The notes beneath the pieces were generated by a model that was not told the origin of the DNA, searched no databases, and was given only the letters and a program-made list of their open reading frames with translations. The position numbers and the translations under genes were made by a program. Positions 379 through 63,231 of a DNA stretch of 64,000 nucleotides are shown one piece after another. The first letter of the stretch is position 1. Each line of letters opens with the position of its first letter. The stretch is from a virus: IMG/VR virus record IMGVR_UViG_3300037264_005839. The stretch is one strand, 5' to 3'.

Positions 379-1727
379 GGAACTATCCAGACAACGAAGA
401 TGAAACCCGCGAGGCCCTCGACGAGCTCGCGTGCGAACAGTGGATGCTTGACCAGCTCCGGCGCAACCCGGACTACCCGCACTGGGGACCCCACGAGGAT
501 TACCAGTGGGTTCAAGATTTTCACAACCCAGACAGTCCCAGGGAATTCTCGGACTGGGACCACTTCAAGCGTTGTTTCACGGTGGGCAAGCATCCAGAGA
601 ACCCGGACGACCGCTCAGGCGGCGAGATCGTGAACTGGTATTTCTCGCTTGAGCGTCAACAACATGAGTGCCGTGACTGCGAGCGGTCCGGGCTCAACCC
701 CGCGACCAAGCGACTGTCCGACCACTGGTACAACCACATGCACCCCACGGGCAACGGGTGGTCTCATCAGCTAACCCAGGATGAGGTTGACGCGCTCCAG
801 GAGTCCGGTCGTCTGAATGAGCTTTGCGGCATGCGCACGCTCGAGGAGTTGGAGATCTTGGTGACGGCGGGCAAGATCGAACGTGCCGAGGCCGTCGCAC
901 GATGGGAGGCTCGGGACGCCTCGAAAGATCTCGTGCTGGACAACGGCAGCATCGTCAACCGGATGGTGCACTGGCGCGATCACATTCCGGCTGACGACCT
1001 CAACGAGGCCTACCGCAAAGGCATCGGTCACGATGCCATCAACCAGTGGATCTGCGTCGAGACTCGAGCCAAGCGCCTCGGCGTCTGGGGGACGTGTCTC
1101 ACCTGCGAGGGCACCGGCCGCATCTCCGTCGAGCCACGCGGTCGCCTCGCCATCGTGCTCTGGGTTGTCAACCCACGTACGGGTCAGAACTATGGTGTCG
1201 AGATCCTCAGCGTTCGCGAGACCGATTTGTCCGAGGTCTATGAATTCGTCCTCTCCTGCGGACAGCGTTTGGCCGAGCACCTCGATCTTCCCGATCTCCG
1301 CACTTTCACGGATGTCGCGGAGGTCGCCCGACGCGAGTCAGCTTGGACTCGGCCCGGGTCGGGCCTTGATGGAGACCCTCGTTACCCACAGTCGTGGTGC
1401 GCTCCCGTCGAGCAGGCATCTTGGAAAGAGATGCGACTGGTCCGAGACTGGCGGGGCAACCCTGTTCCACCGGAGGATCCGCAGCACGCCAAGCTCGGTC
1501 CCTCGTGGGAACTCGACTGCTACAACGAACTGATCGGGATCGACTTCGAACCCAACGGGCGTTACCCGGGACGCCTCCACTTCTGGATGGCTCACCCCCG
1601 CAAGGGTGCTAGCCGTCGCCTCACCATCGCCAGCTACGACGAGGGAGACCTCCCCGACATCGTCGCATGGGTCCGGGGTGCGCGGGAGCGAACTCTCAAG
1701 CGGTTCGCCTGCCGGCCCGAGGAGTAG
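375..1727 (+). CDS. hypothetical protein with CxxC pairs (possible zinc ribbon)
   Basis: ATG at 375 preceded by AAGGA; in frame with ORF 237..1727; motifs HECRDCERSG and CLTCEGTG; high GC3. Confidence 0.55.
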   Translation: MRNYPDNEDETREALDELACEQWMLDQLRRNPDYPHWGPHEDYQWVQDFHNPDSPREFSDWDHFKRCFTVGKHPENPDDRSGGEIVNWYFSLERQQHECRDCERSGLNPATKRLSDHWYNHMHPTGNGWSHQLTQDEVDALQESGRLNELCGMRTLEELEILVTAGKIERAEAVARWEARDASKDLVLDNGSIVNRMVHWRDHIPADDLNEAYRKGIGHDAINQWICVETRAKRLGVWGTCLTCEGTGRISVEPRGRLAIVLWVVNPRTGQNYGVEILSVRETDLSEVYEFVLSCGQRLAEHLDLPDLRTFTDVAEVARRESAWTRPGSGLDGDPRYPQSWCAPVEQASWKEMRLVRDWRGNPVPPEDPQHAKLGPSWELDCYNELIGIDFEPNGRYPGRLHFWMAHPRKGASRRLTIASYDEGDLPDIVAWVRGARERTLKRFACRPEE

Positions 1728-1745
1728 AAGGGGGAGGAGACCCTC

Positions 1746-2729
1746 ATGCCAGGATGGCCCTCAGGCAAGTTCTACCGCAAGACACAACACGCCAAGCCGC
1801 GTTTCCAGCTCTACCAGCCCGGCTTCAATAGCATGAACGGGTGCTGGCTCGACGGCGATTGGATCACCGTCCCAAAGGACGAGTGGGATCGTCGCAAAAA
1901 CGAGCATGACAGAACGTACAGCGCCGCCCGGAAGCGACTCTCGTCGCAGCACCATCGTGACGATGGGGTAGCTCCTGAGGCGATGACTCCAGCGCAGAGG
2001 CAGGCGTGGAAACACAACGCGGGCAACGGACGGTTTGATGCGGTTTGGCCTGATGGCCGCATCCAGGGTCTTGAACTCGGCCTGGCGGCCAACAAGATGT
2101 CGGCCGCCAGCGAACGATGGCTCCGCAACCAAGGGGCGAAACTCCTGCGCTGGGTCGTTGGCCCTGGACGCAAGAAAAAGCCGATCAATCAGCTCACCGG
2201 CTTCAACATCCCCGATGATCTCGTGAGCACGGAGCGGGGAACCACTGAGAACGATCCGGTGGACACTTGGCAGCACGTCGTGGATCAGAACGTCGCTGGG
2301 TTTGATGACATGTTCGAGGGCTGCATCCAAGAACTTGAGAGGGCTGAGGACAACGGCATTCAAAAGATTACCCTCTTCGCCGCACAGATGGCATTCCAGA
2401 GGATTATCGAGCTTGAGGAGGAGATCATCCGCATGGAGTGGAACGAGACGCGCGGAGAAAAGGACGAGTTCCAGACGATCCCCGACGAGACGAGGCGGTA
2501 CATCCGTTTAAGGGCACGGCTCTGTACGGCCCTCGACAAGGGTTCCTTCAATGATTGGTATGAGCAGGCCCGGACCACCCACAACGAGTGCGCCCGGACC
2601 AACCTCGACAACACCGAGGGGCGGTTGTACTGCTTCGTGTTGCCGAAGTTTTACGATGATGGTTCGCACGATCCGTGGGGGCCTCGCGACGTCCCGTGGG
2701 GCCAGGAAGCACAGGAGATGTTGGCATGA
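1746..2729 (+). CDS. hypothetical protein
   Basis: 327-aa ORF; GGGGGAGGAG SD-like stretch 8 nt upstream; high GC3. Confidence 0.6.
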   Translation: MPGWPSGKFYRKTQHAKPRFQLYQPGFNSMNGCWLDGDWITVPKDEWDRRKNEHDRTYSAARKRLSSQHHRDDGVAPEAMTPAQRQAWKHNAGNGRFDAVWPDGRIQGLELGLAANKMSAASERWLRNQGAKLLRWVVGPGRKKKPINQLTGFNIPDDLVSTERGTTENDPVDTWQHVVDQNVAGFDDMFEGCIQELERAEDNGIQKITLFAAQMAFQRIIELEEEIIRMEWNETRGEKDEFQTIPDETRRYIRLRARLCTALDKGSFNDWYEQARTTHNECARTNLDNTEGRLYCFVLPKFYDDGSHDPWGPRDVPWGQEAQEMLA

Positions 2730-62900: not shown

Positions 62901-63177
62901 CGTCGTCGTCCCCCTCAATCGAGAAGTCCACGTGGGAGTAGCGTTCGGGCGAACTCGGGGCACGGATCTTCTCCACCTCCGGGCCCTCGCTTTTCTGCCC
63001 GACCCACTGTTGGTAGAGGCGCGCCTGCTCGTCCTTGGGGAGCGAAACAAACTTGACCTCGTTGCCCGTCGACGGGTTACGGAACTTCCTCCCCTTGACC
63101 GCGTCGAGGAACTCCTTCCGGTAAGCTGCTTGCCGCGCCCAAGCGGCTGCGATGTGGCCGCTGCCCATCCTGAACAC
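56953..63177 (-). CDS. giant modular polyvalent-type protein (repeated modules, two HExxH zincin-like domains, C-terminal ART-like region)
   Basis: 2074 aa; GTG start; repeat AAAW..R..(K/R)F(R/K)NPxTGNxVxFxSLPKxEQ at about 63032-63097, 60983-61039, 58083-58163; HEATH at 61645-61659 and HEMTH at 60487-60501. Confidence 0.7.
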   Translation of the reverse strand: MFRMGSGHIAAAWARQAAYRKEFLDAVKGRKFRNPSTGNEVKFVSLPKDEQARLYQQWVGQKSEGPEVEKIRAPSSPERYSHVDFSIEGDDDDDSSATDDPPRRGRAHMTDTKLMRRVMGVGNGSHRDRLLDLAGMGALARQLRRVEVTVDWDEDTTSFYVNGSGDDGLYFERTIQYSNPPGKRSQSRPDRITNFKIETDKDAPEGIGTRMLMGQVLAAEREGFQTIETEAQGSPGSEWSGYYVWPRLGYDGDIEKETLAMMSPALRREIEKIARKDGGKPRFSHLMMLPKGRSWWKENGHSVDLSFDARAGSRSREVLEGYVRERARKDGKSPTDYMLRRGAKTDAPGMDDDDEEILATVWDAARRHLDEAPRVAATWMRRAVRPIPVDKEAVRAKATKLSEKLLKQLEAAPPDRPVRERQVWVQDSMPVRSVQGEDLDAIVVVRAGPAGGPGPYIDSGGFGWHQPTGRPVVIVSLNGHYTPKDLARSLRGSPELIQDMIYTTLLHEATHASDVRRQSGYQVSGAGEQYTTDDLDRYYNDPHEVRAFMQQVVDETERAFGDRQETVLEKFGESRGLKMILGASDTWREINEHLHEDNRRKMIKAVHRALSDRREKARGKASEPSDDFWQWMGRTVSGVPNPNPDGRERTISPATLRGYAESGDHRDRARRIVERYQAQYKKRDKERDVAAAWVHRVVAKQTELSEFRQEVESRKFRNPDTGNDVLFVSLPKQEQARIFAEWRRKQRGGDPKPERERGLVEIDREKARDTARRMTEEIGKWKVRAPDEPIGDRFLPGGGGPITYGRMFETSVKGRPRPFPVQLGVGEHGEGLWRAGRHFVSGGGVQFRHLGEKDEGFPISLRINLNPKLTYRELQDPKAASRIEQEIYSVMIHEMTHARDVIETPAQVRRRRKKDIPERPGPHDSPEESEQKEREHFQGREREYYNRPSEARAFKRQVAEEFRRELEKIYKVQEFKHERAKEKGEDIVEDPDWISMDADSVMTMLERSPTWDRVREWLTPANRRKYLETVASIVRTFKEQHGGKVATRKIAAAWLRKAISEKYVRPLKKVDTDDLPFDHLFEGRRRMVVDPEDHGGLGASEPDSAKDLEKFLRANGALKDDEQVDWKQGYVIDGSGKTKSKVGKAFQNAVKNFVGGDREFYANRLKVQQDLAKGESPLQRTLGIGRDQLQALTGMGHLLVEGFPTSQIWEEIEKFGVPSPDSWKRIKEVADRFAALSPDERDAKTKEHEAEYHRDAEVSEDFRKQYWAARGLFQTHNKTKSGDEADWLMRHFREWAERTDDFYESDDAEPLRKMHELGSTIDPGRFEELRSLQEIEKKRQSYDLWRSIRGQDLVVVLSRDPVDVLRMSDYPKAVQAIQSCHSEGGSEFQCAIEEAEEGGMIAYVVRKSDVEGRDLDEGELFEDQGRDVEGIKPYARLRLRRFENDTGDGLEVAVPETTTYGADFPDFVQAITNWARGAQPEFVSGDAGYSPRPRDWRLTGGTYQDNTSSDLFNNFLGRDEDDRYGREPTEDEYDPYGEGFTLEDSPYYNPDREDEDEDEGEAEVASKAVQPWRHTDHMTDFWGWMKENHPQIRNPNPRGTKEHISPATLKGYARGATIYSRSARELVGRYLSRYQQERSKHEEGQPQGDVRASRIVSAWLLKVAKSSFSEWVKGKRFKNPATGNEVLFSSLPKPEQEKIRASWGQRAEDSAPAKQGPAADIARSPVHQSAVFGRVVDRRTPKDDRHQERLSSAMQDVSERAEKIDHDAKLGSWERKKLYEEGPSILARYIRTGRGLTDEEALKVLATHGRYQGDTTDLYRGITGVTSEQVEGLLGFVPAEDTPVAVEYTDGRFLQPAQSLASSWSASSKVAHDFAARGVGENQWNVLFVARTDEEEDHGNFVAVHYDHLGAHDQEQNEDSIYERAFQMALKDDPDALEGFDSWEDIQSSDEDTDAARKAVEDNYQYAVEELGMEGEMDNPEGFEAEEEMLGVGPVRVGRVYVFRKPGELTRMLGEAENEELDVLTRMAGEDEEDTDKTPKRVKVKKEPFRIDRFVVPADQVFPQKASPPLPKKS

Positions 63178-63231
63178 GGGCCCCTATAGAACGGTCCGTG
63201 CGCATCGTGAAAATCGAAGGATATCTTGTCT

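Follow-up and report, generated by a model that had tools for sequence, protein, structure and literature searches.

In Deinococcus a TANNNT '-10-motif' is found 6-7 bp before about one third of the open reading frames (ORFs), where it serves as the promoter for leaderless mRNA (PMC12340547). Leaderless architecture is also common in Actinobacteria (PMC4633059). Among phages, the Thermus phage P23-45 has promoters lacking a -35 element, which let phage transcription escape host shut-off, and a TG(TG) motif is found at -14 to -17 in its middle and late promoters (PMC5758890). Cluster K mycobacteriophages carry the Start-Associated Sequence (SAS), a tightly conserved 13-mer, GGGATAGGAGCCC, with an AGGAG Shine-Dalgarno core, which lies 3-7 bp before starts (ATG at 80 of 93 sites) and at about half of its sites has a second upstream repeat that resembles a protein-binding site (PMC3203893). 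We have analysed a stretch of 64,000 nucleotides, hereafter the window, from the IMG/VR virus record IMGVR_UViG_3300037264_005839, in which a motif box stands a few bases ahead of the start codon in about a quarter of the genes. The original prediction had proposed that this motif is either a -10-like element driving leaderless or short-leader transcripts or a translation-initiation motif analogous to SAS. Judging from the sequence, it is likely that the boxes are the -10 regions of promoters without a -35 element that give leaderless or nearly leaderless mRNAs.

The boxes belong to two sequence classes, class A, CGG-TAG(A/G)GT-G, and class B, G(G/A/C)G-TA-N-AA-(G/C, rarely T). Like the Deinococcus-Thermus -10-motif they present a TA-initial hexamer in the place of a ribosome-binding site (RBS), lack a -35 element and are kept at orthologous genes, and in both cases a quarter to a third of the genes are involved. 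Unlike that motif, however, they are found in a phage clade and not in a cellular genome, they are known from sequence alone, and only class A fits the pattern, the class B hexamer being TA-N-AA-(G/C, rarely T) with an invariant 5' G. The boxes resemble the P23-45 promoters in relying on the -10 region only. The P23-45 promoters stay active when phage proteins have disabled recognition of the -35 element, and this parallel could explain how phage genes are transcribed selectively once sigma region 4 or -35 recognition is out of action. The bases ahead of the hexamer are unlike those of P23-45, since the boxes have C or G at -15, any of G, A and C at -14, and an invariant G at -13; the extended -10 pattern (TGn), with T at -15 and G at -14, is not that of the window sites or of the sites in relatives, and no homologue of gp39 or gp76 was identified. 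Another Thermus phage, phiYS40, is said to have been described by Sevostyanova et al. in 2007 (J Mol Biol) as making leaderless middle and late transcripts, with a link to initiation-factor levels. Box-adjacent leaderless gene expression is a known style; what is new here is the phage group, the class B sequence, the conservation of two classes and the IF3 context.

All 20 sequences listed in the original prediction were found where it had placed them and in the orientation it had given, and the shuffled controls place the core of the motif far above chance. In 300 dinucleotide shuffles, a test that is independent of gene annotation, GTA[GTC]A[AG] was expected 43.7±5.9 times and was observed 115 times, the same core followed by ATG 5-11 nucleotides (nt) later was observed 25 times against 3.7±1.8, and G.GTA[GTC]A[AG][GTC]G was observed 22 times against 3.3±1.7. 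A second shuffle test gave 4 copies of CGGTAGRGT (class A) where 0.42 were expected, 14 of GVGTAHAAB where 2.35 were expected and 13 of GVGTAGAAB where 1.76 were expected. In the 40 nt upstream of crude gene calls TAGAA headed the list of enriched 5-mers (11 against 1.0) even without curation, and its enrichment there exceeded that of Shine-Dalgarno words. Enrichment over intragenic sequence was also found: the non-coding 9% of the window holds 19 of the 27 GVGTANAAB matches (binomial p=1.5e-14), and a narrow, non-iterated position weight matrix (PWM) of 10 columns, built from 21 curated sites, gave 16 non-coding matches and 1 coding match at 12.5 bits or more, some of the non-coding assignments resting on starts that were re-chosen beside the motif (22782, 35627, 37699, 50266 and 51212). 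Outside its training set the matches of this PWM were 4.3-fold denser in non-coding DNA (9/30, p=1e-3). Automatic start calls were off by 5-110 nt for several genes of the window. A wide, iterated PWM (-6 to +12) was dropped in favour of the narrow matrix because it drifted to purine-rich coding sequence (GAGGAG, GAAGAG).

Information content is limited to positions -3 to +6 relative to the T of the hexamer, and the conserved part is G-T-A-n-A-(A/G)-n alone; the site profile reads G at -1 (21/22), T, A, n, A (20/22), A/G, n and G (18/22 in the window). In promoter numbering, -15 is G at 14 window sites, C at 5 and T at 3, -14 is G at 12, A at 5 and C at 5, and G is near-invariant at -13 (21/22). 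This short core, AT-rich in DNA of 61% G+C, is strongly concentrated in the sense orientation, 4-11 nt before starts. From the end of the hexamer to the start the spacing is 5 nt (five sites), 6 (four), 7 (five), 8 (two), 9 (two), 10, 11 or 15; the whole range is 4-15, and the mode of 5-7 nt, which covers 14 of the 22 sites, matches both the distance usual between a -10 element and its start site and the 6-7 bp of the Deinococcus-Thermus motif. At 13744, 15302 and 35611 the likely starts are not the nearest ATG but 13736, 15319 and 35627, which lie 11, 7 and 7 nt after the hexamer. ATG is the start of 20 of the 22 genes with the motif and of 50 of the 75 without it (Fisher p=0.03), a preference that is expected if a 5'-terminal AUG is required. 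Words of the GGAG type stand 5-11 nt before the start in ordinary genes and are scattered over 0-8 nt in motif genes.

No -35 signal was found in the region from -40 to -7, where information content is below 0.45 bit everywhere, and the best TTGACA match at a spacing of 16-19 nt had a mean of 2.70 against 2.54±0.17 at random positions. A scan for canonical -35/-10 promoters returned 1, 2 and 3 sites per 20 kb where about 3 are expected, and the hairpins of intrinsic terminators, which ahead of the boxes would mark the limits of transcription units, showed no enrichment. Because these scans stayed at chance level, the boxes are the only promoter-like signal found. Four pairs of divergent genes have one box per strand between starts that are 34-122 nt apart (13736/13798, 35504/35627, 37159/37274 and 50231/50266, the last with boxes 50237-50246 and 50251 and 34 nt between the start codons), and at such distances the promoters must lie there or inside the neighbouring gene. 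In addition, leadered copies are found 30-69 nt upstream of starts at 5064, 48301, 51526 and 53619, and the genes that follow the first three have their own RBS.

The 219-amino-acid regulator encoded in the window has 84 homologues, 42-83% identical, whose contigs reach 235 kb and share a conserved gene order, and on this ground the window is assigned to a sizeable clade of uncultured large phages. The relatives were obtained solely via a protein database, and spacing and class were scored at nine loci from related phages with independent gene calling. Here too the motif peaks ahead of starts, with 28 matches at spacers of 3-12 nt against 5-8 per neighbouring 10-nt bin (Poisson p=7e-10), the spacers running from 4 to 11 nt. 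Of the 14 class A sites in the relatives, 11 have C at -15 and 13 have G at -14; every one precedes an ATG, and the spacers are 5-11 nt. Of the 15 class B sites, 12 have G at -15; their sixth base is G in 9, A in 3, C in 2 and T in 1, and the spacers are mostly of 4-7 nt. The class A hexamers (TAGAGT, TAGGGT, TAAGAT and TACGGT) fit TANNNT in every case, whereas the sixth base of class B is T at only 2 of 14 window sites and 1 of 15 sites in relatives and is otherwise G, C or A.

Each class is kept by orthologous genes. The regulator gene has a class A box in the window and in 8 of 8 relatives, and the AAA_25-like gene divergent from it has a class B box both in the window and in all seven relatives sharing this arrangement. 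The DUF1508 gene has class A in 3 of 3 genomes checked, GGTAGAGT being kept 5 nt before the ATG of the orthologues in L002 and L003, and the family of the gene starting at 22782 has class B in three genomes, the orthologues carrying TAAAAG (L002) and TAAAAA (L005) 4-5 nt before their starts. The divergent region between the regulator and AAA_25 genes, about 60 nt long, was aligned for 8 genomes whose regulator proteins are 56-83% identical. Mean column identity is 52%, and the only invariant columns are the two start codons, the G,T,A,-,A,A of class B and the C,G,G,T,A...T,G of class A; in the class B box at 13782 the G, T, A, A and A are invariant across the 7 aligned relatives. The class A box is followed by a conserved CTAT(G/A), the purine of which stands exactly 7 nt past the hexamer, at the expected +1, and this conservation indicates that the true start of the regulator is ATG 13736 and not ATG 13743; the predicted +1 would leave a leader of 4-5 nt. 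The original prediction had treated all the sites as one co-regulated gene set. This needs to be changed, and at least two regulatory sets, defined by sequence class, appear more likely because each of the two classes is kept by orthologues across the clade.

Table 1. Boxes and other features of the window. Sites marked 'new' were not in the original prediction; distances run from the end of the hexamer to the start codon unless another reference is given.
Feature	Sequence	Position	Strand	Distance and start	Gene and remarks
Class A	CGG-TAGAGT-G	4701..4710	+	5 nt, ATG 4715	112-aa gene
Class A	CGG-TAGAGT-C	11766..11775	+	9 nt, ATG 11784	DUF1508 gene
Class A	CGG-TAGAGT-G	13747..13756	-	11 nt, ATG 13736	sigma-region-4-like regulator
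Class A	CGG-TAGAGT-G	37260..37269	+	5 nt, ATG 37274	125-aa CxxCxGxG protein
Class A-like	TGG-TACGGT-G	50251..50260	+	6 nt, ATG 50266	HD-domain gene
Class A	GGG-TAGAGT-G	10845..10854	-		orphan, no ORF downstream; TTCGTGAAAA site 2 nt away; new
Class B	GAG-TAGAAG-G	1722..1731	+	15 nt, ATG 1746	TAG is upstream stop; ambiguous
Class B	GAG-TATAAG-G	10638..10647	+	5 nt, ATG 10652	46-aa ORF; new
Class B	GGG-TAGAAG-G	13782..13791	+	7 nt, ATG 13798	AAA_25/DnaB-like gene
Class B	GCG-TATAAG-C	15303..15312	+	7 nt, ATG 15319	431-aa gene; TTTTCACGAT site 4 nt upstream
Class B	GCG-TAGAAG-G	22768..22777	+	5 nt, ATG 22782	
Class B	GAG-TAGAAG-G	25361..25370	+	8 nt, ATG 25378	TAG is stop of upstream gene
Class B	GAG-TATAAC-G	30228..30237	+	7 nt, ATG 30244	
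Class B	GGG-TAGAAG-G	35611..35620	+	7 nt, ATG 35627	NUDIX gene
Class B	CGG-TACAAC-T	35511..35520	-	7 nt, GTG 35504 or 1 nt, ATG 35510	71-73-aa gene; divergent from box 35611; new
Class B	TCG-TAGAAG-G	37165..37174	-	6 nt, ATG 37159	divergent from box 37260
Class B	GGG-TATAAG-G	37684..37693	+	6 nt, ATG 37699	
Class B	GGG-TACAAG-G	40142..40151	+	10 nt, ATG 40161	GGAGGAGG between box and ATG
Class B	GCG-TAGAAT-A	45376..45385	-	5 nt, ATG 45371	new
Class B	GAG-TATAAC-G	46435..46444	-	8 nt, ATG 46427	TTTTCACGAA starts 21 nt upstream of hexamer
Class B	GGG-TATAAC-G	49445..49454	-	9 nt, ATG 49436	77-aa gene ahead of SIR2
Class B	GAG-TAGAAT-G	50237..50246	-	6 nt, ATG 50231	
Class B	GGG-TACAAG-G	51217..51226	-	5 nt, ATG 51212	
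Leadered	GCG-TATAAT-GGGA	53619..53628	-	69 nt upstream of start 53550	IF3 gene; new
Leadered	GGG-TATAAA-A	48301..48310	-	34 nt upstream of ATG 48267	new
Leadered	GCG-TAGAAA-C	51526..51535	+	31 nt upstream of ATG 51566	LemA gene; TTTTCACGAA between; new
Leadered	GGG-TAAAAG-A	5064..5073	+	30 nt upstream of ATG 5103	own GAGGAA Shine-Dalgarno; new
Doubtful member	TCTATAGGGGCCC	63178..63190	-	before GTG 63177	2074-aa gene
Second motif	TTTTCACGA	10835-10844, 15291-15300, 51550-51559	+		
Second motif	TTTTCACGA	37199-37208, 46453-46462, 63204-63213, 56930-56939, 13766-13775	-		
Regulator gene		13077..13736	-		219 aa; two sigma-70 region-4 helix-turn-helix domains, no region 2
IF3 gene		53029..53550	-		173 aa; IF3_N and IF3_C
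2074-aa ORF		56953-63177	-		2074 aa; no Pfam, PHROG or PDB match

The sites are listed in Table 1. The window contains four exact copies of CGGTAGAGT, every one directly before a start. Two listed sites are in doubt, although the sequence is present at both. At 1722-1737 a well-placed GGAGG and an ATG as far as 15 nt away mean that the site could be merely a stop codon followed by a Shine-Dalgarno sequence, and at 63178-63190 (TCTATAGGGG) the core does not fit, the 5' G being replaced by C and the A of hexamer position 5 by G. It had also been claimed that the TAG of the hexamer is the stop codon of the upstream gene in three listed cases; this was confirmed for two listed sites (1725 and 25364), not three, and an unlisted case is found at 45625.

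As to which of the two proposed alternatives is correct, the -10-like, leaderless or short-leader one is best supported by the position, spacing and ATG preference of the boxes together with the lack of a -35 signal, and also by the divergent box pairs and the strict conservation of the core in eight related phages. If the boxes are promoters, then the RNA polymerase holoenzyme would melt the DNA at the box and start about 6-7 nt downstream, transcription would begin at the start codon or within about 5 nt upstream of it, and the mRNAs, leaderless or with a leader of at most 5 nt, would be translated without a Shine-Dalgarno sequence. Class A (TAnnnT, G at -14) would be read by a housekeeping-type sigma, while class B may depend on a polymerase that has been modified or is directed by the phage. 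Where a copy stands 30-69 nt upstream of a start, it would be a promoter of the same kind whose transcript has an ordinary leader, and such leadered copies fit a promoter acting at the DNA level and not a translation signal.

The G-rich bases that follow the hexamer in the window phage would be a favourable discriminator. A GGGA discriminator, which follows the hexamer directly at -6 to -3, is recognised by region 1.2 of Thermus sigma-A and strengthens -10-only binding, the difference in DNA binding between the optimal GGGA and the unfavourable CCCT being about 100-fold (PMC3526302). Similarly, G, often as GGGG or GGGA, follows the window hexamers, with an exact TATAATGGGA at 53619-53628. Unlike a GGGA discriminator, the G-run shows no conservation at the orthologous sites of relatives; a G directly follows the hexamer at 18 of 22 window sites and at 17 of 34 in relatives, and its position varies at orthologous sites. 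Therefore, of the consensus G(G/A)GTA(G/T/C)A(A/G)(G/T)GGGnG in the original prediction the core stands and the trailing GGGnG does not, and the G-run is an optional enhancer or a composition effect and not part of the core. A GGGA-type effect could explain the G-run in the window phage.

Several points weigh against reading the boxes as leaderless promoters. Housekeeping RNA polymerase normally starts 6-10 nt after the hexamer, and at 7 sites in relatives with 4-nt spacers the A of the ATG is only 5 nt past it. Shine-Dalgarno-like 4-mers at 3-12 nt occur in 7 of 22 motif genes and 35 of 75 others, so that their depletion at motif genes is a trend and not significant (p=0.23), and at several sites GGAGG or GAGG stands 1-3 nt from the ATG. 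Class B lacks T at the sixth hexamer position, which is near-invariant in sigma-70-type -10 elements and in the Deinococcus-Thermus -10-motif (PMC12340547). Finally, the phage encodes an IF3, and in E. coli leaderless translation is inhibited when the concentration of IF3 is high (PMC9031893).

The missing T of class B and the 4-nt spacers leave room for a phage-specific sigma factor or polymerase or for an unusual host enzyme. We consider it unlikely, but worth weighing, that the boxes, and those of class B in particular, serve as promoters for transcription machinery of the phage's own, be it a phage-encoded sigma-like factor, a late factor in the style of T4 gp55 or a phage RNA polymerase, multisubunit or single-subunit, with a short recognition motif at the start site or beside it, which would start right after the box and give G-rich leaders of 4-8 nt; the boxes would still be promoters. 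The G or C at the sixth base of class B, the invariant G at -13 and the AA pair are unlike TAnnnT, a start immediately past the motif fits better with spacers down to 4 nt, and the classes are kept by orthologues like the temporal promoter classes of phages. The contigs of the relatives, at up to 235 kb, fall in a size range with known phage-encoded polymerases (AR9; PMC5312081), and the window itself encodes a sigma-region-4-like protein. However, Pfam and PHROG scans of the roughly 95 window genes and of the annotated loci of relatives gave no RNA polymerase and no region-2 sigma, an absence that is weak evidence because only 64 kb of a larger genome is covered, and neither a polymerase motif nor a match in PDB or Pfam was found for the 2074-amino-acid protein. 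T4-type late promoters, which consist of TATAAATA read by gp55, are like the boxes in being a single short -10 box without a -35 element, phage-specific and gene-adjacent, with TA-T-A-A as the first five bases; unlike them, the boxes do not contain TATAAATA, the window has 0 matches to this consensus at 1 mismatch or fewer, and no gp55-like protein was detected in window scans.

That the motif is an RNA-level translation-initiation element replacing the Shine-Dalgarno sequence in the manner of SAS, for example as the binding site of a phage or host factor or of the phage IF3, is quite improbable. The motif does sit in the place of the RBS, AAGG or GGAGG often follows the hexamer in the window phage, the phage does encode an IF3, and the likeness to SAS is real as far as position goes: both are repeated, oriented, start-adjacent motifs with a preference for ATG that sometimes overlap the upstream stop and are conserved among related phages, and TTTTCACGAA beside some of the window boxes recalls the second upstream repeat of SAS. 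The likeness ends there, since the window motif, a degenerate 7-10-mer, has TA-n-A-A as its -10-like core and no AGGAG, and the 13-bp SAS consensus is not enriched in the window, where it has 20 matches at 3 mismatches or fewer against 21.9 expected, one with 2 mismatches (17485), and none that coincides with a hexamer box. The invariant G-T-A has no complementarity to the anti-Shine-Dalgarno sequence, and the G-rich tail, which could pair, is not conserved in relatives; moreover, Shine-Dalgarno-like runs stand 0-3 nt from the ATG as against 5-11 nt for ordinary ones. A translation signal also does not account for the copies 30-69 nt upstream of starts or for the box without an ORF, nor for the paired boxes in divergent regions of 34-122 nt, where promoters must be. 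The SAS alternative of the original prediction is thus not upheld beyond position.

Hardly any credit is due to the remaining explanation, that the pattern is a by-product of compact junctions (stop TAG or TAA, purine-rich RBS, ATG) and base composition, because, although TAG is the stop of the upstream gene at 1725, 25364 and 45625 and the iterated PWM was pulled by purine-rich coding sequence to GAGGAG-like matches, TAG serves as a stop in only 2 of the 21 curated boxes and the TAT and TAC variants cannot be stops, boxes are present between divergent genes, where there is no end of an upstream gene, the exact core is the same in all 8 genomes while the flanks vary, and the observed counts were never reached by dinucleotide shuffles; an artefact of stop codon and RBS accounts for at most 2-3 sites.

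A second motif, TTTTCACGA(A/T), has 8 exact copies in the window where 0.3 are expected. It is mostly intergenic, 15-45 nt from a box in either orientation, or lies between box and ATG as at the LemA gene; the copy at 22726 is simply conserved coding sequence. In relatives it is found at orthologous places (L005 ~14451-14500, L006 ~13418 and L090 ~7520, before LemA in L090). It stands 4 nt upstream of the class B hexamer in L005, in L006 and at 15291 in the window, and in L005 it forms an inverted repeat. TTTTCACGA(A) was considered as a -35 element and rejected since its distance from the hexamer varies from 15 to 45 nt, it occurs in both orientations and it is at times found downstream of the box. 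The motif looks like an operator, and the sigma-region-4-like regulator is perhaps the protein that would bind this candidate site. The promoter region of the regulator gene itself, for which the class A box is the candidate promoter, holds a palindrome, TTTTCGACGAAGAAA, that is related to TTTTCACGA. The regulator protein has a C-terminal KOW/SH3-like tail, and its gene is always divergent from the AAA_25/DnaB-like gene across roughly 60 nt. A sequence search of PDB with the protein gave nothing significant. It could be a regulator or else a mimic or decoy of sigma region 4.

The IF3 gene has about 30 homologues in the clade with 60-79% identity, which are syntenic beside a large Laminin_G protein and the LemA/TPM genes. 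Among cellular proteins the best matches are from Myxococcales and Kofleriaceae at 52-58% identity, the closest at 54-58%, many phyla giving 45-52%, and this similarity is a weak hint that the host may be in Myxococcota. The gene starts with ATG and not with the atypical start used for infC autoregulation in many bacteria, and its start lies 69 nt downstream of a perfect TATAATGGGA box. Because IF3 inhibits leaderless translation in E. coli, a phage that appears to rely on leaderless mRNAs and has its own IF3 is worth testing. Directly upstream of IF3, in an arrangement kept in one relative, is one of two genes for small proteins with DnaJ-type CxxCxGxG zinc-finger repeats (53641-53838, minus strand; the other is at 37274-37651, plus strand).

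The 2074-amino-acid ORF downstream of the doubtful site at 63178 has three copies of a module of roughly 30 amino acids, KFRNPxTGNxVxFxSLPxxEQ, and two HExxH metalloprotease-like motifs (HEATHASD and HEMTHARD), and it resembles a 'polyvalent' multi-domain phage protein. A virion RNA polymerase was considered for it and rejected, since it has no DxDGD-type motif and no match in Pfam, PHROG or PDB.

Two intergenic regions with boxes have further features. An inverted repeat, TTATACCCC-N12-GGGGTATAA, lies at 48301-48334 between SIR2 and the next minus-strand gene, with 48301-48310 pairing with 48324-48333. Both arms are -10-like boxes, one per strand, and the copy on the plus strand would point antisense into SIR2; the repeat may instead be a hairpin at the 3' end of the SIR2 transcript. 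A 232-nt gap (10640-10871), whose counterparts in relatives measure 49-300 nt, follows the gene for Leu/Phe-tRNA protein transferase. Within this gap are a class B box, a possible 46-amino-acid leaderless ORF (10652-10792), a TTTTCACGAA site, the orphan class A box on the opposite strand and a GC-rich hairpin, GAGGCACG...CGTGCCTC.

With 61% G+C and about 91% of its length coding, the window has roughly 95 genes; the record from which it comes is a metagenomic contig of 66 kb. A search of it for tRNA genes and Rfam families found none, megablast of 25 kb against GenBank phage genomes gave no nucleotide match, tblastn with two large window proteins gave marginal matches only, and a scan of IMG/VR with the AAA_25-like protein found no relative. 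The window proteins that could be assigned to families are a minority and together make up the typical auxiliary set of a large phage. They include, for RNA and nucleotides, RtcB, Thg1, Leu/Phe-tRNA protein transferase, endonuclease V, AlkB, several NUDIX proteins, DHFR and dCMP deaminase, and in addition SIR2, an ATP-grasp protein, an HD protein, SPFH, LemA/TPM, a GH25 lysozyme and a PHROG 'virion structural protein'. A dense cluster of RNA and tRNA repair and modification genes at 7293-22000, syntenic across the clade, has RtcB ligase, Thg1-like guanylyltransferase, Leu/Phe-tRNA protein transferase, two metallophosphoesterases, AlkB, endonuclease V and NUDIX as its members, to which some relatives add an RNB/dsRBD RNase, and it suggests countermeasures against host defence that targets tRNA or RNA. 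An ORF at 31524-31835 on the plus strand, which was missed by the codon-usage gene caller, has an HNH-endonuclease-like signature (DHHLVPK...GG...CHGKIH), suggesting the insertion of a homing endonuclease.

A wider proposal, which we regard as possible but doubtful, is that class B is the signature of a dedicated expression programme in an undescribed clade of large phages, possibly on Myxococcota, with a phage-directed polymerase reading class B as a -35-independent box that abuts the ORF, IF3 and the regulator re-tuning the transcription and translation of the host to favour the leaderless mRNAs, and class A together with the TTTTCACGAA operator providing temporal control. The absence of the canonical -7 T from class B raises the question of which sigma or polymerase reads it. 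The conserved phage IF3 beside boxes makes the interplay of IF3 and leaderless translation testable with defined sequences. If the boxes are promoters, they would give a transferable rule for the whole clade of uncultured large phages, one that would locate the starts of transcription units, correct start codons and sort genes into at least two regulatory classes. If this is true, then the architecture in which a box abuts the ORF of a leaderless mRNA, known from Deinococcus-Thermus, Actinobacteria and Thermus phages, would be extended to a new phage group.

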